From: Squalus acanthias
Taxonomy: Eukaryota
Length of the DNA: 64,000 bases
Direction: 5' to 3'
Assembly (NCBI GenBank): GCA_030390025.1
Contig: CM059432.1
Span: forward strand, 76,014,001-76,078,000
The notes below the pieces were generated by a model that saw nothing but the letters and a program-made list of their open reading frames with translations, made no database searches and was not told the origin of the DNA. Position numbers and translations under genes: made by a program. This document shows, piece after piece, positions 7,210 through 62,627 of this stretch; the stretch's first letter is position 1, and each line of letters opens with the position of its first letter.

Positions 7210-7378
7210 TTGACGTTTGTATGCAATATGTCATGATTTAATTTATAAATTTGATTTGGAATGTTTATTTTGTGTTGGCTTTTATTTTTGCATTGTGGCC
7301 AAGCAGACACTGTGATGGTCAGTAACAGAGGAAAGATAAGACGTGGGACTGTTAGTGAATAGGGAATTGGGGTTGCGT

Positions 7379-39709: not shown

Positions 39710-40790
39710 CTGTGAAGAGAATGTGAAAAGTTCTTAATTGGGTAACTGATCAAATGGATAAGAATCCTCTCTTCCTTAATCAGGTAATGCCAAACATTTG
39801 TGTTTATTTTTAAAATCCCAGTTTTATCCTTTGCTCCACTGAAGGTGCTAATGCACAAGTGGCCACTCCTCAGGTACGAGCCTTGACAATATTTCCAAAT
39901 GTTCAAATGGGAGCTTCAAAAGAAAAGAAAGATAGGACCTCAGTTTAGTGTCTCATTTGATGGTTGAAATGCCCCAACAGTGCAGCATTCCCTCTTACCT
40001 GCACTGGAGTGTCAGCCTAGATTATGCAGTCACTTCTCGGTGTGACACTCGAACCCATAAACATCTGACCAAGACACAAAACTGCCAACAAGCTGATACA
40101 GGATCCCTCTATGGTTGCACAGCCTGCCAACACATTTTTTAAGCTCACGCATGAATAGTCACTTTGACTAAGTAGTGATGGGCTGTCAGCGGCAATGGAA
40201 CTGCATCACAGCATGAGCCGGTGCCTCGAGAAGGGGGAAGAAAAATTTGAGCAATGACATGACCACGAATACTACTACTAACTAGTCTAGTATGTTTAAA
40301 AATGTTGTACAAAACTGAATTCTTTATGGAACTGGAGTGATACTGGATTTGGTTCTGAATTATGAGGCCAGTCTCACTCCCACAATGAACACAGCATGCC
40401 ACCTGTACCTGTCAAGGCCAGGGAGACACTCAATTATTGGATGTAGATGCCTAGAAATTGCGACGCATAGCCACCATTTTTTAAGGCACTACGTAGCCTC
40501 TAAAGTCTACAAAATGGCAGGCAGGAAGCACGTGCGCAATTTCGACTGCCATACTGGGTAAGAACAAAGAGTAAAACAGCGGCAACAGGAGCAGTTTAAA
40601 AGGAGAACTGTGGCAGCCCAGCCCAGCAGTGAAACAAACCCAGAGAAAAATTACAAAATGACGTCATAGTCGGTAGCGAATCCGGAGGAAATTGAGCTAA
40701 GTATTTAATTTACTATATACACTTTTTTTTAACTTAACTATAAATAAATAGTTAAATAAATATTCAGAAGAGTTAATAACTAATATAAAA

Positions 40791-41474
40791 TGTGGAAATG
40801 GAAGCTAAGTAAGAAAACTGAAATAAAATGAAGGAGTCACCATGTGTAAGGGATAGTGGATAAATAATGCAGAGGTTCAGTAATGTTCTAAACAGAGGGC
40901 TCATAGGTAACCTCGTCAGACACGGGTGAGGTCACTACAGACGCCAGTTAACAAACAATGGGTCAATTGAAGAAAATGGATGAAGTAAGACGTAAACTAA
41001 TCAAGAAGATGGGACAGGTTGTAGAATAGGATAAACTAATCATCAGGGCACAGGAAAGAGGGAACAAATGTGTAACCAAAGAGATGGGACAGATTATAGT
41101 ATAGTATAAACCAGGAGGGAAAACCCCAGATAGAGAGCGAGAACCTAGCAGCGAGAACCTGGCAGCAAGAAACCTAGGAGCAACACTCGACAGCAGGGAC
41201 CTGGGGACAGAAACCCTACGTACAGGTTTGGACAGAGATTGATCACCTCGGACCAAAATCGGGTAATATCGATATAAGTTGTGAGTCTTATATTTTGGAA
41301 TTGTACTTTAAACTACGAACGGTGTTTGTTAAGCATTTATTAAAGATAAATCTTTGTACGCGAAATCTGTTGCCTGTGTGTTTGTTCAGACCAAACTTAC
41401 ATTTGAACCCTAAAAGGAAAAATTGCGAACCTATTTGTTCGATCTTTCGAACATCTAGCGAAATCGGAGCAACA
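40791..41474 (+). mobile_element. Probable solo LTR (684 bp)
   Basis: TGT...ACA ends, AAAA on both flanks, TATAAA ~41105, ATTAAA ~41339. Confidence 0.5.
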
Positions 41475-41776
41475 AAAACTTAGTGTAAGAAGAGCGGGCA
41501 GTGAATCTAACAAAAGGGAAAATCTGAATAAATTACGCCAGGGTGAGCACAGAGGAGCAGCTCTGAGTAAATCGGGTGAGTAAAAAGTAAGCTTTTTTTA
41601 ATCAAAAGTTGTCTACCTAATTTTAATTTAATTTTAACTAAATAATTTAATAAATAAAACAAGGTTATATAGGGTTGGCAGTGCAGCTAATCTGCCTCAA
41701 CTGCAGCATGTTGGAGTTTGTGGAGTGAATCCCGGACGACCACGTCTGTGGTAAGTGCCTGCATCTCGAGGAACTT

Positions 41777-42520
41777 AGGCGATTTAGACAAGTTGAGTGA
41801 GTGGACAAATACATGGCAGATGCAGTATAACGTGGATAAATGTGAAGTTATCCACTTCGGTAGGAAAAACAGAAAGGTAGAGTATTATTTAAATAGTGAT
41901 ATATTGGGAAATGTTGATGTACAAAGGTACCTGGGTGTCCTTGTACACGAGTCACTGAAGGCAAACATGCAGGTGCAGCAAGCAGTTCGGAAGGCAAATG
42001 GTATGTTGGCCTTCATTGCAAGAGGATTTGAGTACAGGAGCAAGGATGTCTTACTACAATTATACAGGGCCTTGGCGAGACCACACCTGGAGTACTGTGT
42101 GCAGTTTTGGTCTCCTTACCTAAGAAAGGATATACATTTCTGACAGGGCTAGACAGACTGGATGCAGGGAGGATGTTTCCCCTGGCTGGGGGGTCTAGAA
42201 TGAGGAGTCACAGCCTCAGGATACGGGGTAGGACATTTAGGACTGAGATGAGGAGAAATTTCTTCACTCAGAGGGTGGTGAACCTATGGAATTCTCCACC
42301 ACAGAAGGCTGTGGAAGCCAAGTCACTGAATATATTTAAGAAGGAGATAGATAGATTTCTATACACAAAAGACATCAAGGGGTATGGGGAGAGCGCGGGA
42401 ATATGGTATTGAGATAGAGGATCAGCCATGATCATATTGAATGGTGGAGCAGGCTCGAAGGGCCGAATGGCCTACTCCTGCTCCTATTTTTCTATGTTTC
42501 TATGTTCTATGTTTTTCTAT
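41777..42520 (+). mobile_element. CR1 3' fragment inserted into CR1 ORF1
   Basis: GAACTT duplicated at 41771-41776 and 42521-42526; TTCTATG tail. Confidence 0.85.
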
Positions 42521-43895
42521 GAACTTCAGCCAGAGTTGTTGAGCTGGAGTCCGAGGTGCAGACATCGGGAGGTGGAGAGTTACCTGGACACTTTGATCCA
42601 GCAGGTAGTCGCACCCCTTGGGTTAGGTAGTGGTAAAGCTTTGGTGTTTGGTTAGTGGTCAGGGACAGGAGCATATGACTGCAAGGTATAAGGGCCAGTT
42701 GGCTAAGGTAGGTTGGGAAACTAGATTAAAAGATATGATGGTAGATAAGCAATGGCAAACATTTAAAGAATTAATTCATAATTCACAATGGATCAACATT
42801 CCCTTAAGGAATAAAAACCCCATGGGAAAAGTGGTCCAACAGTGGCTAACAAGAGAAGTTAAAGATAGTATTATAGAATAGAATCATTACAGCACAGAAG
42901 GAGTCCATTCGGCCTGTCAAGCCCATGCCGGCTCTCTGCAAGAGCAATTCAGCTAGTCCCACTCCCCCGCCCATAGATTAAAGGAAGAGGCTTATAATGT
43001 TGCCAAAAAAAATAGTAAGCCTGAGGATTGGGAAGATTTTAGAATTCAGCAAAAGATGACCAAGAAATTGATAAAGAAAGAGAAAAGAGAATATGAGAAT
43101 AAACTAGCGAAAGTAAACATGAGTCCCTTAGAGGCAGAGACAGGAGAAATTATAATGGGGAATACAGAAATGGCAGAGACATTAAATGAATACTTTGTAT
43201 CTGGCTTCACAGTAGAAGACACAAAAAAAATTCCGGAAATAGCGGGGAACCAAAGGTCTAGCGAGAATGAGAAACTTAAATAAATCAGTAATAATAAAGA
43301 AATAGTACTGGAGAAATTAATGGAACTAAAAATCGACAAATCTCCTGGACCTGATGGCTTACATGCTAGGGTTTTAAAAGAGGTGGCTACAGAGATAGTA
43401 GATGCATTATTTTTGATCTTCCAGAATTCCCTAGATTCTAGAACGGTCCCCGTAGATTGGAAAGTAGCAAACGTAACCCCGCTATTGAAGAAAGGAGGGA
43501 GAAAGAAAACAGGGATCTATAGGCCAGTTAGCCTTTCATCAGTAGTAAGGAAAATGCTAGAATCTATTATTCGGGATGTCGTAGCAGGGTACTTACAAAA
43601 TCATAATATGATTGGGCAGAGTTAACACGGATTTACAAAAGGGAAATTGTGTTTGACAAACCTGTTTTTGAGGTTATAACTAGTAGAATAGATAAAGGGA
43701 AACCAGTGGATGTCGTGTATTTGGATTTTCAAAAAGAATTCGGTAATGTGCCACACAAGAGGCTATTACACAAAATTAGGACTCATGGGATTGGGAGTAA
43801 TATATTAGCATGGATTGAGGATTGATTAATGGATGGAAAACAGAGAGTAGGAATAAATGGGACATTTTCGGGTTGGCAGGCCCTAACTAATGGGG

Positions 43896-44640
43896 TCTTC
43901 TTCTTAGGCAGTCCCTCGGGACCGAGGATGACTTGCTTCCTCACTAAAAATGAGTTCTCAGGTGACTGATGAGTCCAATGTGGGACCTACAGTCTCTGTC
44001 ACAGGTGGGGCAGACAGTGGTTGAAGGGGCGGGTGGGTGGGGTGCTTGGGTTGGCGTGCGCTCCTTCCGTTGTTTGTGCTTGGCTTCCGCTTGCTCCCGG
44101 CGAAGAGACTCGAGGTGTTCAGTGCATTCCCGGATGCTTCTCCTCCACTTTGTGCGGTCTTGGGCCAGGGATTCCCAGGTGTCGGTGGGGATGTTGCACT
44201 TTTTCCAAGGAGGCTTTGAGGGTGTCCTTGAAGCGTTTTCTCTGCCCACCTGGGGCTCTCTTGCCGTGTCGGAGTTCCGAGTAGAGCGCTCGTTTTGGGA
44301 GTCTCGTATCAGGCATACAGACGATGTGGCCCGTCCATCGGAGCTGATCGAGCGTGGTCAAAGCTTCGATGCTGGGGATGTTGGCCTGAGCAAGAACACT
44401 GACGTTGGTGCGCCTATCCTGCCAATGGATTTGTAGGATCTTGCGGAGGCAGCGTTGGTGGTACCTCTCCAGTGTTTTGAGGTGCCTGCTGTACATGGTC
44501 CATGTCTCTGAAGCATACAGGAGTGCAGGTATCACTACTGCTCTGTAGACCATGAGCTCGGTGCTGGGTTTGAGGTCCTGGTCTTCAAACACTCTCTTCC
44601 TCAGGCGACCGATGGCTGCACTGGCACACTGAAGGCGGTG
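43896..44640 (-). mobile_element. RTE-clade LINE 3' fragment
   Basis: VYRAVVIPALLYASETW, QLRWTGH, RLPK..LYSEL, CPTC...H zinc finger, GAA tail. Confidence 0.88.
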
Positions 44641-45045
44641 GGGTACTCAGCTATTTACAATCTATATCAATGACTTAGATGAGGGGACCAAGTGTAATGT
44701 ATCCAAGTTTGTTGATGATACAAAGTTAGGTGGGAAAGTAAGCTGTGAGGAGGACACAAAGAGGCTGCACAGGGATATAGACAGGTTAAGTGAGTGGGCA
44801 AGAACATGGCAGATGGAATATAACATGAAAAAGTGTGAAGTTATCCTATTTGTTAGGAAAAATGGAAAAGCAGAATTTTTTTTAAATGTTGAGAGACTGG
44901 GAAATGTTGGTATTCAAAGGGACCTAGGTGTCCTTGTACACGAATCACAGAAAGTTAACAGGCAGGTACAGCAAGCAATTAGGAAAGCAAATGGTATATT
45001 AGCCTTTATTACAAAGGGATTGGAGTATAAGAGCAAAGAAAGATA

Positions 45046-45441
45046 AAAAGAAAGACTTGCATTTATATAGCGCTTTTCACGACCACCAGACGTTCCAAAG
45101 CGCTTTACAGCCAATGCAGTACTTTTGAAGTGTAGTCACTGTTGCATTGTAAGAAATGCGGCAGCCAATTTGCGCACAGCAACCTCCCACAAACAGCAAT
45201 ATGATAATGACCAGATAATCTGTTTTTATTGATGTTGATTGAGTGATAAATATTGGCCAGGACACTGGGGATAACGCCCCTGCTCTTCTTCAAAATAGTG
45301 CCGTAGGATCTTTTACACGCACCTGAGAGAGCAGATGGGGTCTCGGTTTAACGTCTCATCCAAAAGACGCCACCTCCAACAGTGCAGCACTCCCTCAGTA
45401 CTGCCCTGGAGTGTCAGCCTAGATTCTTGTGCTCAAGTCTC
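45046..45441 (-). mobile_element. DeuSINE copy
   Basis: Near copy of 35478-35853, inserted into CR1 ORF2. Confidence 0.78.
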
Positions 45442-46782
45442 TTACTACAATTATCTAGGGCCTTGTTGAGACCACACCTGGAGTACTGTGTACAGTTTTG
45501 CTCTCCTTACCTATACTTGCCTTAGAAGGAGTGTAATGAAGGTTCACTAGACTGATTCCTGGGATGAGGGGATTGTCCTATGACTAGGATTGAGATGAGG
45601 AGAAATTTCTTCACTCAAAGGGTTATGAATCTTTGGAATTCTCTACCCCAGAGAGCTGTGGATGCTGAGTAGTTGAGTATATTCAAGACAGAGCTCGATA
45701 GATTTTTGGATACTAAGGGAATCAAGGCATATGGGGATAGTGCAGGAAGGTGGGGTTGAGGTAGAAGATCAGCCATGATCTTATTGAATGGCGGAGCAGA
45801 CTTGAAGGGCCTACTCCTGCTCCCATTTCTTATGTTCTGAACAAACAAGAGGCGTCCTTTACCCACGACTGAAACAGGCGTTAGGTGCCTTATTTGCATA
45901 TGCAAAGAGCCTAACACCTGTTTGAGGTCCCCGCTGGACAATTGGTTTGTCCGGAGGCTGGCTGCACTCCAGGAAACCAACTTACAGATCAACTGCAGAA
46001 ACAAGGTAAGTTATTTAACTGTAACGCATCTTCCCTATTGCCGCCGCTCCCCCCCGTCCCCCTCCCCCCGCTGACCCCGCCACGGCCCCGAGATCCCTGA
46101 TCTCCAGGACCTGGCTAACCTCTTGTCTCCCCGCTGGCCCCAACCTCCAGGCTCCCTAGATTTATCAACTTGCCACAATCGCTCCCCGAGGCCTCCCAAG
46201 CCCCGCGATTCCCCACCCCCGAGCCCCACTATCCCCCCGGCCAACAATCACTTACCCGCATGGCCTCCTCCTGCCTCGCCATTGATATGGGAATGAGAAC
46301 CGAGGCCCAATATCCGGGCTCCTCGGACTCAACCATCCGTGCACAGGGTAATTCGGTCATGCTGTTTAATCACGGTGCCCTGTGTTAATATCACATCATG
46401 GACACATTCAATTATGAAATACTATGGGGTAGAAATTAGGTCGCGCCCCATTTGGGGCGCAAATATCGTCCGCGCGCAAATATTAGCGCCTGGCGCTAAT
46501 TATCGGCACTGACAGGAAACTTCACTTTTACCACCCCGGGAGGTGAGTGGAGCGCTAAATTAGGCGCTGCACACCTCTCTTAAGGCGCAAAGGCCTAGGA
46601 GTGAGGCGCTACCTCAGCGCACGAGCGCAGCGCAGCTGCTGCCAGTTAGCGAGGGAACACAGACACACTGGCGCCGGACACTTCTTAAAGCGGGGGGGGC
46701 CACTTGCTCCCCAGCCACACCCTGCTCATTGCAGCCTTGAATCTCAGCCTGGAGAGACCTGTAATCCATTTTGCTGCCAAGC

Positions 46783-47019
46783 ATGGAGAGGGTGAGAGAA
46801 CGCGCTCATCGCTTCACCGAGCGGGCCTTGGATGCTCTGGTTGACGTAGTGGAGCGCAGACGATGCATGCTGTTCCCGGAGAGTGGCAGGAGGCCTTTGC
46901 CACGCGAGTTCAGAAGAGTGTGGAGGGAGGTGGCTCAGAGCGTCTCCTCCAGGAGCATGGTGCCCAGGACCCATGTCCAGTGCCGCAAAAAGTTCAACGA
47001 CCTCACTCGGGTCGTCAGG
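46783..47019 (+). CDS. H3 Myb/SANT-like protein exon 1
   Basis: MERVRERAHRFTERALDALV...W.EVAQSV...RTHVQCRKKFNDL; donor AGG|GTGAGT, phase 0. Confidence 0.88.
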
Positions 47020-47160
47020 GTGAGTGGCTTTTTCTCAATACCTCTCCATCCCTCCATCTCAACCTCACTCTATGGCCAGAGGGTCTTAAAACCCCAATGC
47101 ACAACACTCATGCAACACCTATGGCCCTTTCATCAAACACACACACACATTCCACACTTT

Positions 47161-47384
47161 GCATACAGTAAGGGCTATTCACCTATGGGAGGCACATCAG
47201 GCAAGACCATGGCTGCATACAGTAAGGGCTATTCACCTATGGGAGGCACATCAGGCAAGACCATGGCTGCATACAGTAAGGGCTATTCACCTATGGGAGG
47301 CACATCAGGCAAGACCATGGCTGCATATTGTAAGGGCTATTCACCTATGGGAGGCACATCAGGCAAGACCATGGCTGTATATTG
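47161..47384. repeat. 54-bp minisatellite, about 4.1 copies, in intron 1 of the H3 Myb gene
   Basis: Unit GCATACAGTAAGGGCTATTCACCTATGGGAGGCACATCAGGCAAGACCATGGCT. Confidence 0.95.
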
Positions 47385-47411
47385 ACTCAGATGCTGTCCT
47401 TTTTCTTGCAG

Positions 47412-47574
47412 GCTAAGCTGGCTCATAATCGGAGACAGCAGCAACGGACGGGTGGAGGGCGGCTTCAGCTGCAACCCCTCAGCGATCTGGAGGAGCGCGT
47501 CCACAGGATTGTGGCAAGCCGGGTGATCGGTCCCGTCGCCACTGGAGACGCCGACCCCGTTCTGGACAGCAATG
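47412..47574 (+). CDS. H3 Myb/SANT-like protein exon 2
   Basis: Acceptor ttcttgcag; AKLAHNRRQQQRTGGG...LSDLEERV; donor G|GTAAGG, phase 1. Confidence 0.85.
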
Positions 47575-47733
47575 GTAAGGTCATCACCTTTTTGTCCTCT
47601 GTCCTTCCACTTGTCCCTCACAATACCAGCCTTTGACACTTTCAATCCAACTTGCTAACTCGCTGCACTTATTCCTCCCTTACTGCCACCCTGTCCTCAC
47701 GCTAAAGCCACTCTTGTACCTCCCTGCTTTCAG

Positions 47734-48713
47734 ATGGTGATTCACCAGCTGAGGAGATGGTCCCTGAAGCTGCCACTGGGAGTGATGCTGCAGCTGAGGA
47801 GGAAGAGGAAGCCGGAGCATCAGTGCCACCCTCTCCCGAGGAAGCCCATGGCCACACTGGGAACACGCCTTCCCCGGAGGGGAGCAGGGGGGAAGGGGCT
47901 GATGATGGTGAAGTTCCAGGACCCAGCGGGCTGCAGCCACGCCATGGGGGGGGGAGGGAAGAACGGGAGCCTTCTCCCCAGAGGGAGAGTATGCCAGACA
48001 CTCCTAATGCAATGGACGCAGAGGAGGAGCGGCTGATTGCAGAAATGAACAGCCAGGCGGTGGGCATGCACACTGAGCTCATGGGTGCAGTGGGAAGGGT
48101 GCCCGAATGCATTGAGGCATTGGCAAGGAGTGTGGAGCACTTCGCTGTAGCACAGGCGGATGCCACACTAAAGCTTAGTGCTGCAATTCAGTCACTGGCT
48201 GCCAGGAACCCATCTGAGACTGCTCTCATGCAGACTCAGATTGAGGCCACGCGAGCACTGACTGCTGCCATCCTCGATGGTTCGTGCACATGTCCCCGGG
48301 GCTGTCACCGCGCCGCAGCAGGCCAGCAATCTGTTCTCCGGCAAATTGCTCCGGATGCTGAAGTGCTGCCCCGTGGGAGTGCCAGTGTGTCGGGCGAGCA
48401 GGGAGTTGCTGTCCTCTCTCACGATGACAGCATTCCTGCTGCCAACACTGTCACTTCTCCACTGCACTTGCCACCGCCTGTAGGACAGACTGCTGCCGCC
48501 CATGCAGAGTTGGTGCAGTCTGCAGCCGGGCCCTCCAGGCCCAGAAGTGGTCGAGGCCGTCCTTCAGGGGCATCTGCAGTGTCAGGGTCTGACAAGCAGC
48601 AGCCTTCCACCAGCCTTGCTGCAGCCACTGAGGTCCCATTACGGAGGAGCAGTAGGGTTAGAAGGGGGGAAGTGCGCAAGGGAAGGAGATCACCCTCGAA
48701 GGGCAAAAAGTAG
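47734..48713 (+). CDS. H3 Myb/SANT-like protein exon 3 (spliced total 1380 nt, 459 aa)
   Basis: Acceptor ctttcag; in frame with ORF 47757-48713; acidic region, heptad-like region, basic tail. Confidence 0.83.
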
Positions 48714-49007
48714 GAGGTGTGCCAAAATGCTGGTCATTTTTTTATTAAAGGCCGAGGTTCATGGCCCAACTTTTGTTTAGTGTTTTGGACATTATCTCCA
48801 GGTTGTGAGAACCAGTTATGTTATTGACTGTTTTTTTGTGTTTATTTCTATGAGTTTGTCATGAGGAATTGACACACACAGAGTTTGTACAATAAATAAG
48901 TTTCTGTATTCAAAATATACATGGCTGGTGGTTGGAATTATTGGTGCCTTGGCCGGCTTAGGGGTTGCGTGCTGGGTTGATTCGTGTTTGTAGCACTGGC
49001 AGGGGCC

Positions 49008-50168
49008 CTAGAAGCGGCTTGCTATTAGTCGTTGACGGACGGCCCTTGCAGTTTGACCATTGTGGGCCGCCCTCCTGCCTTGGTGCTGCTGCTGATCATC
49101 GTCCTCGGCCTGTTCCTCCTCTTCCTCCTCCTCCTCTTGTGGTGCTGCAAGGCCTGGTGGCATTGGCTGCGTCCTGAGGATTGCCATGTTGTGCAACATG
49201 CAGCACACCACTACGAATTTGGAAACTTGCTCAGGCGAGTACTGCAGGGCTCCTCCGGAATGGTCCAGACAGCGGAATCGTTGTTTGAGCACGCCGATTG
49301 TGCGCTCAATAATGTTCCTGGTTGCTTGTTGGCTTTCCTGGTACCGCAGCTCAGCAGGGGTGTTTGGCGCACGGAGCGGTGTCATCAGCCAGGTGCTCAA
49401 TGCGTACCCCTTGTCCCCCAGAAGCCAACCAACTGGCTGATGCGGTGCCTTGAAAATTTCTGCCACAGTACTCTGGCGCAGGATGAAAGCATCGTGGCAG
49501 CTGCCCGGATAGTGGGCATTGACAGCGAGAATCACCTGTCTGTGGTCACAGACCAACTGCACATTCAAGGAATGGAACCCCTTTCTGTTCCGGAACTCCT
49601 CTGCATTCTCTCGCGGAGCACGCAAAGCCACATGCGTGCAGTCAATGGCGCCCTGCACCATGGGGAAGCCCGCTACCCTCGCAAAGCCCATAGCACGGTC
49701 ATGCTGCTTGTCTGGGGTCATAGGGAAGGAGATGAAGTCTCGTCTCCTTGTGAAGAGGGCATTGGTGACCTGCCGGATGCAGCGATGCACCGCAAACTGG
49801 GAGATATTGGCGAGGTCCCCAACAGCAGCTTGGAATGAGCCAGTGGCGTAGAAGTTCAAAGCCACTGTGACCTTCACTGCCACCGACAGAGACGTCCTGG
49901 ACCTCAGCTGAGGCTGCAGATCTGGCTGCAGCAGGTGGCAGAGCTCAGTGACCACCTCCTTGCTGAATCGCAGCCTTCGCAAACACAGCTCCTCGGACAT
50001 GTGGATGTAGGAGAGCTGTTCACGATATACCCTGGGAGGGTAAGCTCTCCTGTACATGCGCCTGATGGCCCTCCTCCGTCTGGCCATCATTGCCACTCTC
50101 TGTCTGCGTCTCACTCTCCTCCGATTGAGCTGGAGCAGGACGACGCCCCCAATCATTGCAGCCCCCAT
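49008..50168 (-). CDS. H3 Harbinger (HARBI1-like, DDE_Tnp_4) transposase, 386 aa
   Basis: Uninterrupted ORF; GAIDCTHV, LLGDKGY, RNIIERTIG catalytic motifs; YPGSCHDAFI; CCMLHN. Confidence 0.95.
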   Translation of the reverse strand: MGAAMIGGVVLLQLNRRRVRRRQRVAMMARRRRAIRRMYRRAYPPRVYREQLSYIHMSEELCLRRLRFSKEVVTELCHLLQPDLQPQLRSRTSLSVAVKVTVALNFYATGSFQAAVGDLANISQFAVHRCIRQVTNALFTRRRDFISFPMTPDKQHDRAMGFARVAGFPMVQGAIDCTHVALRAPRENAEEFRNRKGFHSLNVQLVCDHRQVILAVNAHYPGSCHDAFILRQSTVAEIFKAPHQPVGWLLGDKGYALSTWLMTPLRAPNTPAELRYQESQQATRNIIERTIGVLKQRFRCLDHSGGALQYSPEQVSKFVVVCCMLHNMAILRTQPMPPGLAAPQEEEEEEEEQAEDDDQQQHQGRRAAHNGQTARAVRQRLIASRF

Positions 50169-51464
50169 ATTCTCTTTGCCAGAAAAGTAATGAGGTACAG
50201 CAACGAAAGTAGCAGCAAAGTTAGGATGAACTAGGCAAAACTACCTCACAAAGCGTTGAGTCAATGTAGAAGTCTCTCTCTCTCTCTCTCCGAATCTCTC
50301 TCTCTCTCTCAGAACGAGTGGTGCATAAATGTTGACCACAGAAAAAGACAGGAAGAGGCCCCCTTTAAATAGCGCCCCCCCCAGCCCCACACCGATTGAT
50401 AACGTTCCAGTCTTCCGGTCGTTGGAAGCGCCAGGCGGTAAGGCAGGGGGCGCCACTCAATTTCCGCTCCGGGGCGCCCCAAGGGCGTTGCACCACGGAA
50501 TGACGTCACAATCTGCGCGCGCAGGTGGTCACAGCGGTAAGTTTTAGCGCCGCCGCACAATCTCAAGTTAAGTTCTCGAGCGGCGCAAACAGCGCTGCGC
50601 CCGGGCGTTAGCGCCTTAACGCCCCATTAGTGCCCATTTAAGGCGCTAACGGGAGGCACAACCAACTGAATTTTTACCCCTATTAGTCAGAACATACTTT
50701 CTGAAAACAATCACACCACTTCTTGATGTAAGATTTACCGCAACACTGTGAATGATCAATCCTCTTTAACCAGTTTTGCAATGTTAAATAATAGTCATCA
50801 CAATGACTCAACTAAAGCAGTCTATATTACATAGGATTTGCATATCAAATTGCTTTGTCATCAGGAGTATATTCAGATGCTTCTGGTTTCTATGGCTACC
50901 TTATATAATCACTGACTTGATACCACAATAATTGGCTCTATTTTCAGAACAAAATAAGAGACCACATAATGACAGGAAATGGAGCTCTGTTTCAATGAGG
51001 ATTCTGGTTAAACTAGTATTTCAAGTTTTATTTTGGAGTGCACTATCCCAGCACAGTGTGAACCCCACAGTGTATAACCAATTACACAGGTCATACAGCA
51101 CAAAACCTCTCACCTCACAAAAGTTTTCATACTGCACAGTATCAATCACAGCTCAAAATGACTTTCAGTGTCCTGGTCCCGATTTCAAAACTGCTGGCCT
51201 ACAAAAGTACCGATTTATTTAGTCTATCCAGACTACTGTATTTTTTTATACATAAGCTAAACTTTGTTTCCTTTTCTTTTGGTTTTAATTGTCCTATTTC
51301 AACTTCTTTATTTTACATAGAATTTACAGCACATAAACAGGCCATTCGGCCCACTGCTCCACACAAACCTCCTCCCACTCTATTTACTTCATCTAACCCT
51401 ATCAACATATCCTTCTATTCCTTTCTCTCTGATGTAGTTATCTAGCTTCCCCTTAAATTCATCT

Positions 51465-52748
51465 CTTCTCTTCTTAGGCAGTCCCTCGGAACCGAGGATG
51501 ACTTGCTTCCACACTAAAAATGAGTTCTCTGGTGACTGATGAGTCCAATGCGGGACCTACAGTCTCTGTCACAGGTGGGGCAGACAGTGGTTGAAGGGAC
51601 GGGTGGGTGGGGTGCTTGGGTTGACGTGCGCTCCTTCCACTGTTTGCGCTTGGCTTCCGCTTGCTCTCAGCGAAGAGACTCGAGGTGTTCGACGCCTTCC
51701 CGGATGCTTCTCCTCCACTTTGTGCGGTCTTGGGCCAGGGATTCCCAGGTGTCGGTGGGGATGTTGCACTTTTTCAAGGAGGCTTTGAGGGTGTCCTTGA
51801 AGCGTTTCCTCTGCCCACCTGGGGCTCTCTTGCCGTGTCGGAGGTCCGAGTAGAGTGCTTGTTTTGGGAGTCTCGTATCGGGCATGCGGACAATGTGACC
51901 CGTCCATCGGAGCTGATCGAGCGTGGTCAAAGCTTCGATGCTGGGGATGTTGGCCTGAGCGAGAACACTGACATTGGTGCACCTATCCTGCCAATGGATT
52001 TGCAGGATCTTGAGGAGGCAGCGTTGGTGGTACCTCTCCAGTGCTTTGAGGTGCCTGCTGTACATGGTCCATGTCTCTGAAGCATACAGGAGGGCGGGTA
52101 TCACTACTGCTCTGTAGACCATCAGCTTGGTGCTGGGTTTGAGGTCCTGGTCTTCAAACACTCTCTTCCTCAGGTGATTGAAGGCTGCACTAGCACACTG
52201 AAGGCGGTGTTGGACTTAGTCATCGACATCTGCCCTTGTTGACACTAGGCTCCAGAGGTATGGAAAGTGGTCCACGTTGTCCAAGGCCTCGTCATGGATT
52301 TTGATAATCGGGGAGCAGTACTGTGTGGCGGGGGCAGGTTGGTAGAGGACCTTTGTCTTACGGATGTTTCATGTAAGGCCCATTCTTTCGTACGCTTCGG
52401 TGAAGGTGTTGACGATGGTTTGGAGTTCGACCTCAGAGTGTGCGCAGACGCAAGCGTCATCTGCGTACTGTAATTCGATGACAGAGGATGGGACGACCTT
52501 GGATCCGGACTGGAGGCGACGGAGGTTGAATAGTTTCCCGTTTGTTCTGTAGATTAGCTCCACTCCAGCGAGGAGCTTACTGAGGGTGAGATGGAGCATT
52601 GCAGCTAGGAAGATCGAGAAGAGCGTTGGTGCGATGACACAGCCTTGCTTGACATCGGTCCGTACGTGAATTGGATCTGTGGTGGATCCGTTGGTCAGGA
52701 TCACAGCTTGCATGTCGTCGTGAAGCAGGCGGAGGATGGTGACAAACT
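51465..52748 (-). mobile_element. RTE-clade LINE 3' portion, inserted in a CR1 tail fragment
   Basis: VKQGCVIAPTLF, LQYADD; near copy of 43896-44640. Confidence 0.9.
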
Positions 52749-53223
52749 GTGCTATTTGCCTCAACCATGTGGTAGTGAATTCCACATTCTCACCACTCTC
52801 TCAGTAAAGAAGTTTCTCCTTAATTCCCTACTGGATTTATTAGTGACTATCTTATATTTCTGGCCCCTAGTTTTGACTCCCCACAAGTGGAAACATCTTC
52901 TCTATGTCTACCCTATCGAAACCCTTCATAATTTTAAAGACCTCTTTTAAAACAAAATCCACACTTAAGTCTCTAAATTTGCAGTACTGGCACAGGACTG
53001 TACATGCCAGGAGAGTATACTGGGGATTTGAGCATGGTGGTAAGTGTGCCCTGTCCCATCCATACGTGTTAATGCCTTTGTTAAAATAATGGACATAGAA
53101 ATTTCATAGCAACACATTAATGCATTTGTTTCTAATAACTGCAGTGTGATTTCAACCACTTCGGCAGATTATTTCTTTTGGTTATTGAAAAGCTGCTAAT
53201 AACACATCTTTTATGGTTATATA

Positions 53224-53392
53224 GGGGGTGACTTTCCGTGGGGGTTCGTCTGCTGTAACTGCAACGGAAGAGCCACGGAAGCCCCAGGAGAACAGCGTAA
53301 ACACCGTTTGTGCCAGTTTTCCGGGGTTTCCACAGCTCATCTGCAGAAGTTACAGAAGACAAGTGGGAGAACCCCAGCAGAAATTCACCCCC
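53224..53392. mobile_element. Small MITE (169 bp)
   Basis: TIRs GGGGGTGACTTTC / GAAATTCACCCCC. Confidence 0.65.
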
Positions 53393-53886
53393 TAAGTAAC
53401 CCAGTCAAGATGGTGGATTTGTAGCTTTCTCATGTGGGAGATTTCTTACTTAGTGAATTTGTACCTGTGGACAACGGAAAACCAATCAATCGCATCATAC
53501 CTGTTACAATGAACATTTTATACTCTGGAACAACAAACAAGCCTCTTAAATGGCGATAAAGGGTAAAAGATGACTGATGCAGCGGTTTCCTGTGGGAAAA
53601 CTCATACCTTGGGAGGCTGTACTTTGATATAAAATGTAATTGCTCCATGAAACTTTGCAGGTGCCTATTTTCTTCTGCCAATGTCACAGAGCAAGTCCCA
53701 CAGTGCAACAGAAGCATAGAATTAGCTAGGACGGTGCATATACAGGAGAATACATGTTGAACTCACTGATCACAAAACCAGAACCCAAGCCTTCATATTT
53801 TTACAGTACAATGTTAGTGTGTACTGATTCTTATTTTAACAGTTGTTCTGTTAAATATTTAATACAACAATAAATAGCGAATACGA

Positions 53887-54474
53887 GGGCTAAAATTCCA
53901 GTAGTCCTGCTCCATTGGTGGAAGTGCAGAGGAGCAAGACTGCTGTCCACCTTCATCAATCATTGTAGACCCTGCCCCAAATTCCAGGGACAGGGCCATT
54001 TAAATATTCAGGAGGGTGGCCTGCACCTGTATGAGTGTAACAGACATAGCTGCCCCGAAACACACCAGGGCCATGCCACTCCAATGGCAGAATTGAAGCC
54101 CGGAAAAGGCAGAGGAGAAAATAGGGATAAAGTTTTAAATTGTTCCTAAGACAGCAATTGGCCACTTTTGTAAAGGTAATCAGCTTCCCCACTGGATCTA
54201 TTACCTTTGCATATTACATTTGAAGCTGGGCCTGATGAGGGCAATATTGACAGAATATCAAGGGTAGCCCAGTAAGTTCTTCAGACGCACCCCCAAAGTG
54301 TGGTAGGGAAGGGGGGAATGGGTGGAACACTCGTCCACTCCTCCCACATCAGAATTTGAGTTGGAATTTAAAGGGGGCGGAAACCTAGCACAACCAGGAT
54401 CTGCTCCAAATTCTGGTATTCCAGTGGGCGATTTGTCTACCTTTTGCCCTCCCTGGTCACTGGAATTTTAGTCC
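53887..54474. mobile_element. Old Harbinger-type MITE
   Basis: TIRs GGGCTAAAATTCCAGT / ACTGGAATTTTAGTCC; no clean target duplication. Confidence 0.65.
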
Positions 54475-54664
54475 ATAGATATTTATTAGAGTTGCCTGGT
54501 TCTTGTATCCACAGCTGAAGTTATAGTAAAGCATTTACTTCTTTACACAAATTCCTATTTCCTCTACGTACCTATAAGAATATTTGCTTGAACTTTGTGC
54601 ATTATCACTTCTCAAAAGCACAGGATTACTTGCTAATTTCTTTCCTGTACTTTTTTTCAAATTA

Positions 54665-57466
54665 TTTTCCGGATATGGGCATTGTTGCTAAGGCCAGTAA
54701 TTATTGCCCATCCCTCGTTGCCTTTGAGAAGATAATGGTCGGTCTTTTCTTGAACTGTTGCAGTCCATGTAGTGAAAGTACTCCCACAATGCTGTTAGGT
54801 AGGGAGTTCCAAGAATTTGACTCAATGATGATGAAGGAACAGCCAAATATTTCCAAGTCAGGATGGTGTGTGACTTGGAGGGGAACTTGGAGGTGATGTG
54901 TTCCCAGGTACCTTTTGCCCTTGTCATTCAGATGGTGGCAGTTGTGGATTCGGGATGTACTGCCGAAGAAGACTTGGTGAGTTGCTGCAATGCATCCTGT
55001 AGATAATACATACTGAAGCCATGGTGCAGCAGTGGTGCAGGAGTTGACAATCAAGCAGACTGTTTTGTTCTGGAGAGTATTGAGCTGTTCTGTGGGAGGT
55101 GGTTAGGCTCTCTCTTGTTGGAGATGGTCACTACCTGCCACTTGTGTGGTGCGAATGTTATTTGCCACTAATTCCAAGCCTAGATGTTGTCCGGGTCTTG
55201 ATGCATATGAGCATGAACTATTTCATTGTCTGAGGAATTGAAAATGGAGCTGAACACTGTGCACTCATCAGCGAACAGCCCCACTTCTGACCTTATGATG
55301 GATGGAAAGTCATTGATAAAGCAGCTGAAGATAGTTGTGCCTAGGACGTTGTCCTGAGGAACTCCTGCAGCAATATTCTGGAGCTGAGATGATTGGCCTC
55401 CAATAACCACCACTATCTTCATTTGTGCCAGGAATGACTCCAGCCACTGGAGAGTTTTCCACCTAACCCCCATTGACTTCAGTTTTACTAGGGCTCCTTG
55501 GTGCCACACTTGGTTGAATGCTGCCTTGATATCAATGGCAGTCACTCTCACCTCACCTCTGGAATTCAGGTCTTGTGTCCATGTTTGGACCAGACTGTAA
55601 TGAGGTCTGGAGCTGAGTGGTCCTGGCAGAACCCAAATTGAGGAGTGGTGAGCAGGTTATTGGTGAGGAAGTGCTGCTTGATAGCACTGTTGACAACTCC
55701 TTCTTTCACTTTTTTGGTGATTGGAATAGGCTGTTAGGGCGGTAACTGACCAGTTTGGATTTGTCCTGCTTTTTTTTGTGAAAAGCACATATCTGGGCAG
55801 TTCTCCACACTGTCAGGTAGATGCCAGTGTTGTAGGCATACTGGAACAGCTTAGCTAGGGCCATGGCTAGTACTGAAGTACAGATCTTCAGCACCACAGC
55901 CGGGAGGTTGTCGGGGCCTGTAGCCTTTGCTATGTCCAGTGCACTCGGCTGTTTCTTTATATCATGCGAAGTAAATCAACTTGGCTGAAGACTGACATCT
56001 GTGAAGATGGGGACCTCAAAAGGAGATTGAGAAATATCATCCACTCGACACTTCCAGCTGAAGATGGCTGCAAATGCTTTAGCTTTGTCTTTTGCACTCA
56101 TGTGCTAAGCTCTGCCATCATTAAGGATGGGTTGCTCATGCAGCCTCCTCCTCCCGTTAGTTGCTTAATTGTCCACCACCATTCACGACTGGATGTGTCA
56201 TGGTTATAGAGCTTTGACCTGATACGTTGGTAGTAGAATTGTTCTACTCTGCATGCTGCTTTTGTTGTTTAACATGCATGTAGTCCTCTGTTGTAGCTTT
56301 CCCAAGTTGACACCTCATTTTCAGGTGTGCCTGATGATGCTCCTGGCATACTCTTCTACACTCCTCATAGAACCAGGGTTGGTCATCTGGCTTGATGGTG
56401 ATGGTGGAGTGAAGGATAATGGTGGTATACAATTCTGCTGCTGCGGATGATTCACAGTGCCTCATGGATGCCGTGATTTGAGCTTCTAAATCTGTTCTTA
56501 ATCTATTTCACTTAGCACAGTGCCAAACGACATGAAGGGATGTCCAGGGAGTGTGCAGTGGTCACTCCTACTAATGCTGTCATGGACAGACAGATCTGCA
56601 ACAGGTAGACTGGTGAGGATGAGGTCAAGTAGGTGATTCCCTCGTGTTTGTTTTCTCACCACTTGCCGCAAGCCCAGTCTGGCAGTTATGTCCTTCAGGA
56701 CTTGGTCAGTGGTGGTACTAACGAGCCACTCTTGGTGAGAGAGATTGAGGACCCCACCCAGAGCACACTGTGTGTTCTTCTATCCCAATGCTTCCTCCAA
56801 TTGGTTTTCAACATGGAGGTGTACTGATTCATTTGCTGAGGGAGGACGGTAGGTGGTAATCGTAAAAAGGTTTCCTTGACCATGCTTAACCTGAAGCAAT
56901 GAGACTTTATGGGATCCAGAGTCAATGTTGAGCTAGGACACAACATACCCAGGGATGTTGATGAAGGAGTCTGGTACGCTACGCTGATAGATATGATTAT
57001 GTGAATATGACTATGTCAGGCTGTTGCTTGACCAGTCTGTGGGACTTTGGCACCAAGAAGAGTACTTTGCAGGATCATCTCGGGTGGGCGTGCCTTTGTT
57101 CTCTGTTCTGTTTTATTCTTGATTTTCTTTCTAGCAGTTTGATACAACTGAGTGGCTTGCTAGGCCATTTCAGAGGGAAATTAAGATCCAACCACGTTGG
57201 AGTGGGCCTGGAGTCATGCATAGGCCAGACTGGATAAGGATGGCACGTTTCCTTCTCTATAGCTTATTAGTGAACCAGTTAGGTTTATAACGACAATCCA
57301 ACAGCTTCATGGTCACTTTTACTAATACCATCTTCTTATTTCCAGATTTTGTTTTAAACTGAATTCAAATTCTCAAATTGCCGTGGTGGGATTTGAATTG
57401 TGTTCTCTGGATTATTAATCTAGGCCTCTGGATTACTCGTCCAGTAATAACCATTGTGCTACCGTA
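54665..57466 (-). mobile_element. Decayed CR1-group LINE (APE + RT) with a tRNA-like 5' head
   Basis: DIKAAFNQVWH, AGVPQDNVLG, LFADE; endonuclease remnants ~56600-57050; A/B-box head at 57466-57380. Confidence 0.75.
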
Positions 57467-57799
57467 TGAGCTTCTGGCCTATCTTTATTTTCTCGTACTT
57501 TCCCATTTCAGAGAACATACTCTGAACCAATAAAGAAAAAAAGCTCGGACTTTGTGTTCCACACTGCAGTTATTCCAAAGAGATCTAATATTTATTTAGT
57601 TGTAAATATTGCACTATTTGTAAACAAAAAGAACGGTAACAAGATTGTGAACGTGAGAGGTCAGTGGCTGCTGGGGACGTTGACAACATTTTGCAACCTT
57701 TTTGTGAGAAGTATAAATAACAAAATGTCTGAAAAGGGTTTTCAGAGAAAGAAAGAAGCCAGAATGCAACAGAGGGGTACTGCGCCTACCTACCATTAT

Positions 57800-58200
57800 C
57801 CTGTTCACTGCATATAAAGCAAAAGACTGACTTACCTAGACTTGCCTGAGGAACAGTATATATGTTAGCTAGGTCTCATCGAGAAAGCTGTGATATCGAG
57901 TTATGCTGAATGCTGCAATCTGACTTGCAGCCAAACTCTAGGACAGACACGATACTGCCAGTAGTTGTCAAGGTCACTTCAGCCTGAACTCTTTTGCCTC
58001 TAGCTAGCATTACTGTATTTGCCAATGTGCTAGCGACACATGTATCAAACAGGTGACTGATGCGTAGCTAGAACTTTCATCTTGTTTCCTACTGAAGAGC
58101 AACAGAAGCATGATATGTCTGTCCAATTTCACCATACTGCACAAAGCATAAAGTACATGGGGTCATTGATGGCAGCAAAATAGCCAACTGGCCAGCAGAG
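57800..58200 (+). pseudogene. Very old Harbinger transposase remnant
   Basis: YLDLPEEQ...LQSDLQP...LPVVVKVTSA...CIKQVTDA...GVIDG. Confidence 0.6.
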
Positions 58201-58345
58201 TCCTGCTCCTCCTGCTATCAATGCTTGCTCCTACTGACCTGTGCACTGTCATTGCCCAGTGTTTTCTCTTCAAACTCATTAACTGCATCCTCTGGGATGT
58301 ACATAGCTGTGCTGGTGCTTACAAATGTTGTTGAGAAGGACACGA

Positions 58346-59490
58346 CAACTTGCATTTATGTAGCACCTTTAACATAGAAAAATGTCCCAAGGTGCTTCAC
58401 AAAAGTGTAATCAGACAAAAATGAACGCTGAGCCAAAGGAGATATTAGGAGGGTTGACTAAAAGCTTGGTCAAAGAGGTGGGTTTTAAGGAGGTTCTTAA
58501 AAGAAGAGACAAAGGTGGAGAGATTTACAGCATACAGCTTGGCTTGCAACAGTGGGCCGAAGGGAGTGGAGGATTCACCAGAAGCCATAGTTGGAGGAAT
58601 GCAGAATGCTCAGAGGTTTCTATGGCTGGAGGCGTTTACAGAGATAGGAAGGAGCAAGGACATGAAGGGATTTAAACAAACGGATCAAAATGTTTAATTT
58701 GAGGCATTGGGGGTGACCAGGAGCCAATCCAGATCAGCAAGCACAGGGGTGTTTTGTGAGCAGGACTTGGTGCAGGATAGGATATGAGCGGCAGAGTTTT
58801 GGATGAGTTGGAGTTTATGGAGGGTGGAGGCTGGGACGCTGAGCATTAGAACAGTTGAGTCTGGAAGTGACAAAGGCGTGGATGAGAGTTTCAGTTGCAG
58901 ATGGTCTGAGGCAGTGGTGGAGGTGGGAGAGAGTGGCTGGACAGTATAAGGGGTCGAATCCTCAGCTCGAGGTCAAAAATAAGACTGGTGGTTCAACTTG
59001 AGACAGAGTGGGATGGATTGGTGGCGAGCATACAAAGCTTGTGGCAGGGACCGAAGACAATAGCATTGGCCTTTCCAATGTTTAACTGGAGGCTCGTGGA
59101 TGTTGGATATGCACTCTGACAACACAGAGGCAGTGGAGGGGTAAGGCCATGGAGGGATTTGAAGATTTGAACACAAGGAAGAGAATTTTAAATTTGAGTC
59201 ATTGGTGGACCGGGAGCCAATGTAGGTCAGTGAGCACAGCAGGATGGGTGAACAGGACTTGGTGTGAGTTAGGATACGTGCAGCAGAGTTTTGGATGAGC
59301 TGAAATTTATTTTGGGTGGGAGAAGGGAGGCTGGCCAGGAGAGCAATGGAATAGTCGAATCTTGAGGCAAGAAAGGCATTGATGAGAGTTTCAGCAGCAG
59401 ATGAGCTGAGGCAGCGGCCGAGAGGGGCAATATTACATGGTGGAAGTGGGCGGCTTTGGTGATGGAGAGGATATGGGGTCAGAAGCTACG
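58346..59490 (-). mobile_element. L2 LINE fragments
   Basis: Reverse-complement similarity to 33900-34765. Confidence 0.72.
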
Positions 59491-59896
59491 GGCAAGCAGC
59501 TCACAGAGCACCTATCCCATCTCGTTAACCACCCTTGGGTGGATGTCATCTAGACCTGAAGCCTTATATATTTTGAGATTTCCTCTTCTATTCAAGATGA
59601 AATTTCTATCTATTTTAATATTTATAATCTTATTTACTACAGTACATCCCACAGCTGGAATATGAAGAGAACTGCAGCATAGTCTTCTGGCTCAACTCCA
59701 AAGAATGCCAACAGGGAAAGTATTAAAAAATCTGCCTGTTCCTCAGATGTTTGGCTGTAGCAGAAACAGCCGCAGACAGGATGTCTTTTCCTGCTCGCAA
59801 CAGAAACCGTGCATGATTGGAATGATCAGGTAAGTGTACCCTCATGTACAGAATATTCTCATTTACTATATAATTAGCAAGTAGAATCCAAAATAA

Positions 59897-60500
59897 AAAT
59901 GCTGAATTCTACTATGAGAATTATCACTGGTATGCTTTTATCAACACCAACACCTTGGCTGCCCATGCTTGCGAACATTGCACCACCACACCTATGCCGT
60001 GAATATGTAGTCTCCAGAGAATACAACCGCTACACCAGCAAAGACATGTCGATCCAGGCCGACTTGAACAACCTACCACCAACCCGTCTCAAATCTAGAA
60101 GGCCATTTTGGACCGTTGCCGAAGCTCTTCAGCGATCTCCCCTCAGCCTTGATGACCGATGGTAAAATGCTTGGAAGAACTGCGACATATGGAATGGATT
60201 CCTTATTGAGGACCCCACAGTACAACCTGAAGGATCAAACCTTCCTCGCAAACAGTGGACAACCATCAACCACCTCAGAACTGGTCATGGTAGATGCTGC
60301 CACCTTCTCCATAGATGGAAGATTAAAGCATCCCCATCATGCGACTGTGGAGCTCCTAATCAGACCCTGGAGCACATCAGAGGAAATTTGCAGGCAACCT
60401 ACAAAATATTCATGCTGTTACACCGGAAGCTTTGAACTGGATATCCAACTTAGATATTGACATTTGGTTTGCTTTGCTACCACCATACAAAAGAAGAAGA
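59897..60500 (+). mobile_element. Ingi/Vingi-like LINE 3' fragment
   Basis: MRIITG.L.STP..WLP.LANIAPP; SCDCG..QTLEH knuckle; GAA tail. Confidence 0.6.
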
Positions 60501-60779
60501 AGCAGCAGCTTTTAATTGTGTACAATCCTCAATCATTCAATCTGATTGGTTAATGAGATACACTGTTGCTTGTCCTGTTCACAGGTCCCAGATGCTCTGT
60601 AGAGGGCGCTGCGCCATTTCAATCTCCCACTTACAGCAATTTGTAGTGCAAAGTTTCATAGAAATTAAACAGGCAACTGCAAGTCTAAGAAATGGTCCTG
60701 GGTTGCAGTAAATTCCATCCCATTATATTGAAAATGTGAGAAAAGCAGAGAGACAATTACAGGAAGATAGAAACCCATT

Positions 60780-62285
60780 GGCTTGGAATTTGCAGTCAGC
60801 GGCGAAATGACACCACTCGCCGCTGACCCCGAAGAAAGCTGCCCATAAAGATCTAGCGATCTCTGTGGCGTGAATTCCAGCTCTCCCGATATTAATTTGA
60901 ATCTGGCACCAAATCAAGCAAATCTCCAGCGTCCAGCAACAGTGATATCATCAAGCAGGCTGAGCAGCCAATCACATTGAAGAATGCTCACAGACAGCAA
61001 ACCAGGAAGTAAAATGCACAGAGTCTAATTTATTTGTTATTAAATTTTACAGAGAGAGAAATAAAGATTGGGTCAGACACATAGGACTACGGTAGAAGCT
61101 GAAATATCATAAACAAACTTTAAAAAATATATATTTTAAAAACCATGTAATTCTTAATTCATATTAATGAAAATATTTGACATTCCACAAATATAAAATT
61201 CATTTTTCAGGGCCAGAACAGTTGTTCAGCAGTCAATTCACCGTTAAAAACCCAGTTACAAGTCTTAACTTTTTGGTGGGGGGTGGGGAGAGGTTTAACA
61301 GCAATGGGCCAAAAATTGATCCCGCTGCGCGAGAGTACGCACTGCGTACTCTCACGTATTCTCTCTCCAATTGCTGGTTTTCTGCATGCCCTGCGCATGC
61401 GCTGAAAACCGGCACTTGGTCTTTGGAAAAGGGGGCGGTTCCTCGGTGCATCGCGTGCGCGCTACAGGCTGCGCGCACGCTGTGCACTTCGTGCTTTGGA
61501 CGCGCAGGTAAGGACGGAAGATTTTAGAAATGGAAAAAGGAGGAGTAAGACCCACTTTTAACAAGGTAAGTAGTGAATTAAGTATTTTTTTGAATTTTTT
61601 TTAACAGGTATATCTTTTTTAGAGACTTTAAAGACAGGTAAGTTTATTTTTATAACTTTTTAAAAGATTTTAAATTTTTTCAAAAATTAAATTTTTTATT
61701 TAAAATGGTTAATTTATTTAACTATACTTATTTTATTAATGTGATGGGTTTTTTTTTTAATTTAATTGAGGTTTAGCTGTTATTTTGGGGGGGTGTAAGA
61801 TTCATAGCTTTGACAGCAGGTATGTGAAACTTATGAATGGAAGATGGTGTGCTGCCATTGGCTCTAACTGAGTCACGTGATCCCACAGCTCGCACGAATT
61901 CACTACGCCTGTGGGATACGCAAGCACTGCCCGGCTGATGTCTAGAACATCAAGTTCGTGCGAGCTGGATCTGAAAAAGCCAACGCGGAGTGAGAGATCG
62001 TGCCTGCTCCTTACCCCCGCGGGAACAGAGCGAGATCAATTTCTGGGCCAATATTCCAGCCTAATAGGGGATGTTTTTGCCAGTTCAAGTGATTTGAATT
62101 GATTGCTGGCTCTGGGGAGTTCCACAGCGCAACCTGTGGCGGAGCAGGAAATGACTGACCGCAACTTCTGGATTTCCAGGTTTATGTGCGCATGCTCTAA
62201 ATCCTGAAGTTACCGTCAGTTTCAGAGGGGTAATGGTGGCTAACGCTGACAGTTTCGCTGTCATTACCACCGCAAAATCTTAGCC
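60780..62285. mobile_element. Harbinger-type MITE carrying a nested MITE
   Basis: Imperfect TIRs GGCTTGGAATTTGCAGT / ACCGCAAAATCTTAGCC; flanks ATT/TTT. Confidence 0.65.
61306..62049. mobile_element. Nested Harbinger-type MITE (744 bp)
   Basis: TIRs GGGCCAAAAATTGATCCCGC / GCGAGATCAATTTCTGGGCC; AAT duplication. Confidence 0.85.
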
Positions 62286-62627
62286 TTTAATCTCCCTAAA
62301 TGTTTTGCCCATGAGCAGTTTAACTCCAGTTTTAAGTTATTTAAAGCTCCTGAAAGTTATCCTCAGCTGGAGCCTGCTGCACCCGAGGCAGGTGTCAAGA
62401 ACTGGAAACATCTGAGAGTTTAGATGTCGAAACATCACACTTTCTGCTCGCTGCCCTGGTCCAAAGAACCCCTGAGCCACGGAAAGATCAGATTGCGTGA
62501 CGTGCATCCCCCATCCCTCAACCCCCCTCACCCTTACCTTTACCCTCAACCCATTCTTTCTCTCCCTCCCCCATGTTATTGCTAGCTTCTTACCCTCCTC
62601 TTAGCCTGTCCGTTTCTGTCGCCTCAC

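Follow-up and report, generated by a model that had tools for sequence, protein, structure and literature searches.

The stretch analysed here, referred to as the window, comprises 64,000 nucleotides of Squalus acanthias (GCA_030390025.1, contig CM059432.1, positions 76,014,001 to 76,078,000). Within the first coding intron of TTPA, which encodes the alpha-tocopherol transfer protein, it carries an element of 4255 bp (46426-50680; Table 1) that is very probably a full-length, two-gene Harbinger transposon of a large family, recently inserted there by transposase, with empty and filled alleles coexisting. TAT flanks the element directly on both sides, and its terminal inverted repeats (TIRs) are short, GGGGTAGAAATT (at 46426) versus GGGGTAAAAATT, with 11 of 12 positions matching, or 14 of 17 when extended. 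The chance of an 11/12 TIR together with a 3-bp duplication is about 3e-8, a value that takes the ends as fixed and is uncorrected for their choice. In contigs from public sequencing runs, read depth steps about 10^4-fold at both element ends. A preliminary description of this DNA had named TIRs and a TAT duplication, and both stand: the TIRs are confirmed at 12 bp, and relative to the empty allele the filled one carries an exact 3-bp duplication.

Twenty runs in 10 studies, under six organism labels (A-F, in addition to unlabelled rows), matched the window, and contigs from four of them (X1, X2, X6 and X17) were compared; the other 16 (shares 0.33-0.84) lie outside the comparison and no conclusion is drawn from them. 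X1 and X2 carry organism label A and derive from DNA samples S1 and S2 of two studies, while X6 carries organism label B. X17 is taken as RNA by guess, being the sole run with a GT..AG joint; no run is recorded as RNA. The joints considered are the 15 listed of 98, and the sequence differences are those at 38 listed element positions, a further 331 rows being unlisted.

Table 1. Features of the Harbinger element and of the TTPA gene that contains it (window coordinates).
Feature	Position	Strand	Basis
Left target-site duplication (TSD) copy, TAT	46423..46425	.	Empty allele retains single TAT
Left TIR, 12 bp (11/12 to right end; 14/17 extended)	46426..46437	+	Sequence and depth edge
Left subterminal region, CpG-rich	46438..46685	.	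9 GCGCC/GGCGC motifs in first 260 bp
Myb gene exon 1, Myb/SANT-like DNA-binding domain, 79 aa	46783..47019	+	PF13873 (Myb_DNA-bind_5), E value 7e-10
Myb gene intron 1, 392 nt, GT..AG, phase 0	47020..47411	+	Homologs P0009 and P0243 align across junction
Myb gene exon 2	47412..47574	+	Open frame and homology
Myb gene intron 2, 159 nt, GT..AG, phase 1	47575..47733	+	Spliced joint in X17
Myb gene exon 3 to stop: acidic stretch, middle region, basic C-terminal tail	47734..48713	+	Open frame
Convergent 3' region	48714..49007	.	Poly(A)-signal-like hexamers: + 48744, 48891; - 48846, 48746
DDE transposase, single frame, 386 aa, without internal stop	49008..50168 (50168->49008)	-	PF13359 and triad
Right subterminal region, CpG-rich	50361..50668	.	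11 GCGCC/GGCGC motifs in last 320 bp
Right TIR	50669..50680	-	Sequence and depth edge
Right TSD copy, TAT	50681..50683	.	Sequence and empty-allele comparison
TTPA coding exon 1	62843-~62628	-	Full-length shark TTPA mapped
TTPA first coding intron, approximate bounds	39710..62627	-	Homology to shark TTPA
TTPA exon 2	~39709-39555	-	Full-length shark TTPA mapped
TTPA exon 3	31644-~31450	-	Full-length shark TTPA mapped
TTPA exon 4	near 3230-3116	-	Full-length shark TTPA mapped

Genes and subterminal regions of the element

The transposase has a match to DDE_Tnp_4 (PF13359; E value 5e-38) and retains the catalytic triad D176, D252 and E288, with 35 residues separating D252 from E288, so that the unbroken 386-residue D-D-E transposase described earlier is confirmed. 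In an AlphaFold model (pLDDT 78.7, pTM 0.75), D176 lies within a strand, D252 follows one and E288 falls within a helix, a predicted arrangement that agrees with the superfamily layout described in PMC4482050. A fold search of the PDB with the model gave no match at E<=0.001; the highest-ranked entries, among them piggyBac (E value 3e-3), were DDE transposases and integrases, and the search was not used as evidence. The nearest proteins are shark and ray gene models, with identity up to 65-66%, and the top matches are all named 'putative nuclease HARBI1'. Of 109 annotated homologs with all three triad positions covered, 53 keep the D-D-E residues.

The second gene is convergent with the transposase gene, and its three exons join into an open frame of 459 residues through GT-AG introns of phase 0 and then 1, which is how the preliminary description had read it; both of the other splice registers tried (2/2) ran into stops. 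P0009 and P0243 align gap-free across the intron 1 junction (47019/47412). The spliced protein matched two of the six proteins to which it was compared, both on the N-terminal part, and exon 1, when used as a query for longer proteins, gave one match. The joint that removes intron 2 (47575-47733) was seen in 3 contigs of X17, at depth 336, and in none of X1, X2 or X6; it is taken to show that intron 2 of some family member is spliced in RNA. Since X17 is nearly without flank cover, this evidence concerns the family and not the TTPA-intron copy.

Several further observations pertain to this gene. Intron 1 contains a tandem repeat (54 bp x 4.1, 47160-47381) through which the exon 1 frame stays open to 47385, and intron retention would give a Myb protein of 200 residues with a repeated tail. 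In the sawshark gene model P0009, Myb exons 1-2 and a Harbinger transposase share one frame, either as an annotation artefact or as a real fusion. A joint 48634->49229 (X17 only, 594-nt skip, depth 203) was rejected as an intron because its ends, CC..TT, are non-canonical; it is perhaps a transcribed deletion copy.

GCGCC/GGCGC motifs number 20 in the 580 terminal bp versus 6 in the 3675 interior bp, and by analogy with related systems these subterminal repeats are likely candidates for the binding sites of the Myb protein. At the two non-coding termini the CpG observed/expected ratio is 0.77 and 0.97, and in the transposase gene it is 0.56, whereas the value over the Myb gene, 0.42, equals the background of 0.41-0.45 in the rest of the window. 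The earlier statement that CpGs are well retained thus applies to the terminal regions and fails for the Myb gene. Because the excess is confined to the ends, CpG content is weak evidence of youth, and its use as proof of youth was dropped.

Empty and filled alleles

In X1, record 1 (1098 bp, depth 13) runs from 45987-46421 directly into 50680-51342 with 2 differences, and in X2, record 17 (786 bp, depth 8.5) joins the left flank straight to the right flank with 0 differences. The joined reading keeps one TAT, which fixes both the ends of the element and its TSD; no alternative TSD register is compatible with it. The empty allele, for which the preliminary description had proposed a search among individuals, is thus present in two samples from two studies. 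The source of X1 or of X2 may be the same as that of the window, in which case it would be heterozygous. As contigs prove the presence of an allele and never its absence, the notion that S1 and S2 are homozygous for the empty allele was dropped. The empty site itself (46417-46425 / 50681-50687) contains an odd palindrome, ACTA-T-TAGT, with its centre one base to the right of that of the duplicated TAT.

Size and composition of the family

Copy number and divergence, which were to be obtained by BLASTN of the genome, were estimated instead from public-run contigs. Depth in bins wholly within the element reaches 1.6e5-1.5e6 in X1 and X2, versus 13 (X1) and 8.5-9 (X2) in the right flank. Summed contig depth is not copy number, and after division by the maximal 31-fold contig overlap the median bin corresponds, as a rough floor, to about 1,300 (X1) and 2,300 (X2) flank-equivalents, and the lowest bin to 390 and 640. 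From this we infer a large family, its copies numbering from the high hundreds into the thousands or beyond.

Among mapped contigs, in which short contigs are biased to variant sites, 16% are at least 99% alike to the window copy (5663/36215 and 8976/54428) and 28-29% are 95-99% alike. The X6 run yielded 184 contigs (0.14 Mb). They represent 88% of the element, in seven pieces that differ from the window copy at 28 of 3838 bp (0.73%) and leave the unique flanks uncovered; this is the longest comparison available on whether identical copies exist at different sites. None of the coding substitutions of X6 among those listed creates a stop. At about a dozen positions X6 agrees with the window copy where most organism A depth differs, which places both in one minor sub-lineage. 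The TTPA-intron copy is therefore a member of a younger and minor sub-lineage within a long-lived family, and the youth that the preliminary description had assigned to the family applies to this sub-lineage and not to the family overall.

Depth at the element ends exceeds that of the middle 2.3-2.5-fold, and some joints skip the interior (46560->50343, 46560->50659), so short non-autonomous derivatives are likely to be common. X1 also contains a joint 50680->46426 with a single A between (depth 45 versus 13 in the flank), which would represent head-to-tail dimers or excised circles. Other copies appear to be joined 50680->51313 (1 contig in X1, 2 in X2) to a repeat tail like the one at 51313, the next letters being TTA.

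The TTPA gene and neighbouring Harbinger relics

The location in TTPA intron 1 given by the preliminary description is correct in the sense of the first coding intron, since both flanking exons were mapped. The peptide encoded at 31644-31450 has 95-98% identity to shark TTPA, exon 1 has 90% identity to sawshark versus 56-78% to others (five proteins compared), which points to a probable squalomorph host, and the splice sites are canonical at all four checked. The transposase gene is sense-oriented relative to TTPA. AATAAA signals at 48746 and 48846 on the minus strand, also TTPA-sense and inside the first intron, could on sequence grounds shorten TTPA transcripts of the filled allele. The TTPA introns (3116-62843) are very long, at about 23, 8 and 28 kb, and are packed with LINE-like reverse-transcriptase fragments.

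Harbinger traces in the window total six. A decayed full-length element of a related family lies at 4796-9291, with the same gene layout, ends beginning GGGGTAGAG, 65-80% DNA identity to the intact element in four blocks, and both genes frameshifted. A second decayed two-gene Harbinger (24166-28377) has 14-bp TIR-like ends, ATT on both sides and a frameshifted transposase. Three further transposase relics are found at 22530-23526, 17565-17684 and 57898-58064.

Age, mechanism and alternative explanations

By analogy with zebrafish Harbinger3_DR and rice Ping/Pong, whose mechanism and two-protein requirement are set out in PMC2836001, the Myb protein would bind the element ends, with their GCGCC-rich subterminal repeats, and bring in the transposase, which would excise the element and reinsert it with a 3-bp stagger, by which the target triplet would be duplicated. 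The same two proteins would also mobilise shorter derivatives that share the ends. At the shark mutation rate given below, intact frames and polymorphism are compatible with an insertion 10^4-10^6 generations ago. They show recent activity on the time scale of the species, not activity today.

Several findings weigh against a recent insertion by a competent element. There is no direct sign of new insertion, and 54-56% of mapped contigs are less than 95% alike to the window copy, so most of the family is old. The window copy alone differs from both the organism A bulk and X6 at about 10 of the 38 listed positions, mostly non-coding, and one of these private differences changes the transposase (K240, a variable site). 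The transposase has Q277 and Q280 (YQxxQ) where the conserved motif is YNxxH: position 277 is Asn in 105 of 120 homologs and Gln in 0, and position 280 is His in 96 of 120 and Gln in 4. The X6 piece covering this region shows only two differences, both elsewhere; the X6 copy thus shares Q277/Q280, which is a trait of the sub-lineage and not a private lesion. As to the RNA, one of the two junctions proposed for verification, 47574/47734, was seen exactly in X17, while the other, 47019/47412, is absent among the 15 joints listed of 98, and one X17 contig continues unspliced through the intron 1 donor. The RNA status of X17 is a guess, moreover, and spliced RNA could derive from any family copy. 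That the two proteins of the TTPA-intron copy are functional is somewhat less likely than not.

The alternative that survives best, with only slightly less than even chances, is that the family has long been inactive and that this copy is intact and polymorphic only through slow shark mutation and the persistence of old alleles. The mutation rate of the epaulette shark is 7e-10 per site per generation (PMC10587355). At this rate, borrowed from another shark, a sequence of 4255 bp would acquire a substitution about every 3e5 generations, and a divergence of 0.73% from the X6 copy corresponds to about 5e6 generations per lineage (range 2.6e6-2.6e7). From the flank differences (7/2296 bp) the coalescent scale is estimated at close to 4e6 generations, and a neutral segregating insertion would have an expected age of 3e4-3e6 generations depending on its frequency (2e5-2e6 at 1-20%). 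If lesions are modelled on rough assumptions, the probability that both frames survive 0.36% divergence is about 0.36. All these values favour long inactivity, as does the altered YNxxH motif. On the other side stand the cohort that is at least 99% alike, the splicing of the Myb gene in RNA, and the DDE residues, ends and frames, which are all intact. CpG-rich repeats mutate faster, and since the rate is also that of another species, the ages may be too high.

A less probable explanation, which we consider distinctly improbable, holds that the empty allele comes from a sister species or from precise excision, and that there is no presence/absence polymorphism within the species. Organism A is a label only and could be a very close sister species; with slow shark divergence, a flank difference of 0-1.2% cannot separate species, and the filled allele may or may not occur in S1 and S2. 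Because excision in PIF/Harbinger elements is usually precise (PMC2836001), the empty allele could be one that never received the element, which is the more likely, or one from which it was excised. However, the empty-site contigs differ from the window at 0 of 786 bp and at 2 of 1098 bp, and organism A runs contain 82-88% of the window words, the highest of all matching runs. Either variant would, in addition, still require a recent transposase event.

It is scarcely credible that intactness is an artefact of assembly consensus, with repeats collapsed or misplaced. The extreme repetitiveness of the family would allow for it, as would the lack of a contig across a flank-element junction among the rows listed, but the 3-bp duplication is exact relative to the empty allele, and the letters at 48120 and 50531 are nearly unique among contigs, unlike a majority consensus. 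A domesticated HARBI1/NAIF1-like gene pair fixed in the TTPA intron has a negligible probability despite the HARBI1 label of the top matches and the two open frames, since a single-copy, fixed HARBI1/NAIF1/MSANTD gene lacking TIRs and TSD is refuted by the empty site and the copy number, and the very high family depth, the TIRs, the TSD and a best protein identity of only 65% to other sharks (versus 95-98% for the neighbouring TTPA exon) all speak against it.

Relation to known Harbinger elements

The element has a DDE transposase, a Myb/SANT second gene and a 3-bp TSD, all features of Harbinger (PHIS superfamily, two-gene type). According to PMC4482050, TIRs of the superfamily start with A or G and are mostly shorter than 60 bp (range 5-1042 bp), with an element length near 4.1 kb; here the TIR starts with GGGG and has 12 bp, and the element has 4255 bp. 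The TIRs of 25-50 bp given in PMC9179366 are longer. For the narrow PIF/Harbinger group the TSD is TWA (Han et al. 2015), which TAT at this site matches at 2 of 3 positions; the joint of other copies is followed by TTA, and a single site does not define the consensus of the family. NuwaI and NuwaII (TSD CWG, or target C|TNA|G) are set apart by their target definitions, as the site here reads C|TAT|T, and ISL2EU has a 2-bp AT TSD and a YqaJ exonuclease in place of the 3-bp TSD and Myb/SANT gene found here. The closest proteins, the shark and ray 'putative nuclease HARBI1' models (P0003 and P0004), are of the same fold family; they are often partial or without the triad, whereas the shark copy keeps D-D-E inside a full element.

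Harbinger3_DR is said to have its primary source in Sinzelle et al. (2008), and coelacanth Harbingers were reportedly treated by Smith et al. (2012). The shark element resembles zebrafish Harbinger3_DR/Harbinger3N_DR in its DDE transposase, Myb/SANT protein, 3-bp TSD and non-autonomous derivatives that share its ends (PMC2836001, PMC3016246). Harbinger3_DR was rebuilt from a consensus, whereas the shark copy is naturally open, and the Harbinger3_DR target AAACACCWGGTCTTT does not match the site found here, whose TSD is TAT; the likeness is one of features. Rice Ping/Pong and mPing are alike in the need for two proteins, the MITE derivatives and the 3-bp TSD, but constitute a plant system of proven activity with TAA/TTA targets (PMC2836001).

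In sea kraits, Harbinger-Snek is, like the shark family, very abundant, at 8-12% of the genome; it has solo-gene and short derivatives and RNA over both genes, and has been called possibly still transposing (PMC8437027). With 269 intact copies in Laticauda colubrina and 1 in L. laticaudata (PMC8437027), the earlier statement that intact vertebrate copies are uncommon was too strong. For Harbinger-Snek horizontal transfer has been argued, whereas the top protein relatives of the shark element are all from sharks and rays, which fits a long vertical history; an empty allele is found for the shark element, and none is reported for Harbinger-Snek in the available text of PMC8437027. Two-gene Harbingers of coelacanth and newt show recent expansion and expression in slow-evolving or large vertebrate genomes (PMC5381603, PMC5741667, PMC9179366); their host lineages differ from the shark, and the likeness is by description.

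PMC4482050 counts 88 potentially active PIF/Harbinger families across eukaryotes, and the distribution of domesticated genes is covered in PMC9392472. As regards cartilaginous fish, Harbingers were undetected in elephant shark according to PMC9179366, whose authors urged that other cartilaginous fish be checked; they are present in whale shark (PMC8455134) and form a small repeat class in grey reef shark, where DNA transposons amount to 1.58% (PMC12498223). The word 'Harbinger' does not occur in PMC4255032. In the literature covered, which leaves aside Repbase, most subscription papers and the supplements with repeat tables (which may name the family), we found no account of a shark Harbinger that is intact or polymorphic. 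The only vertebrate Harbinger found to move in cells is the reconstructed Harbinger3_DR, most subscription papers, including a 130-transposon screen, being again outside this scope. What the present analysis contributes is a copy in which neither gene is interrupted, together with an allele that lacks the insertion and one junction seen spliced.

Significance

The odds that the family is still mobile in the germ line at present fall a little short of even. It is unlikely that this is a natural vertebrate Harbinger both still mobile in the shark germ line and able to work as it is in cultured cells despite YQxxQ; in that case the end-to-end 50680->46426 joint would stem from excised circles. 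The copy could serve directly as the template in a two-protein assay of transposition, with no reconstruction needed; if inactive there, it is an ordinary, well-preserved transposon. The family to which it belongs is very abundant, is spliced in RNA and segregates as filled and empty alleles, and transposons are thus likely to contribute to standing variation in a lineage where point mutations are very few.

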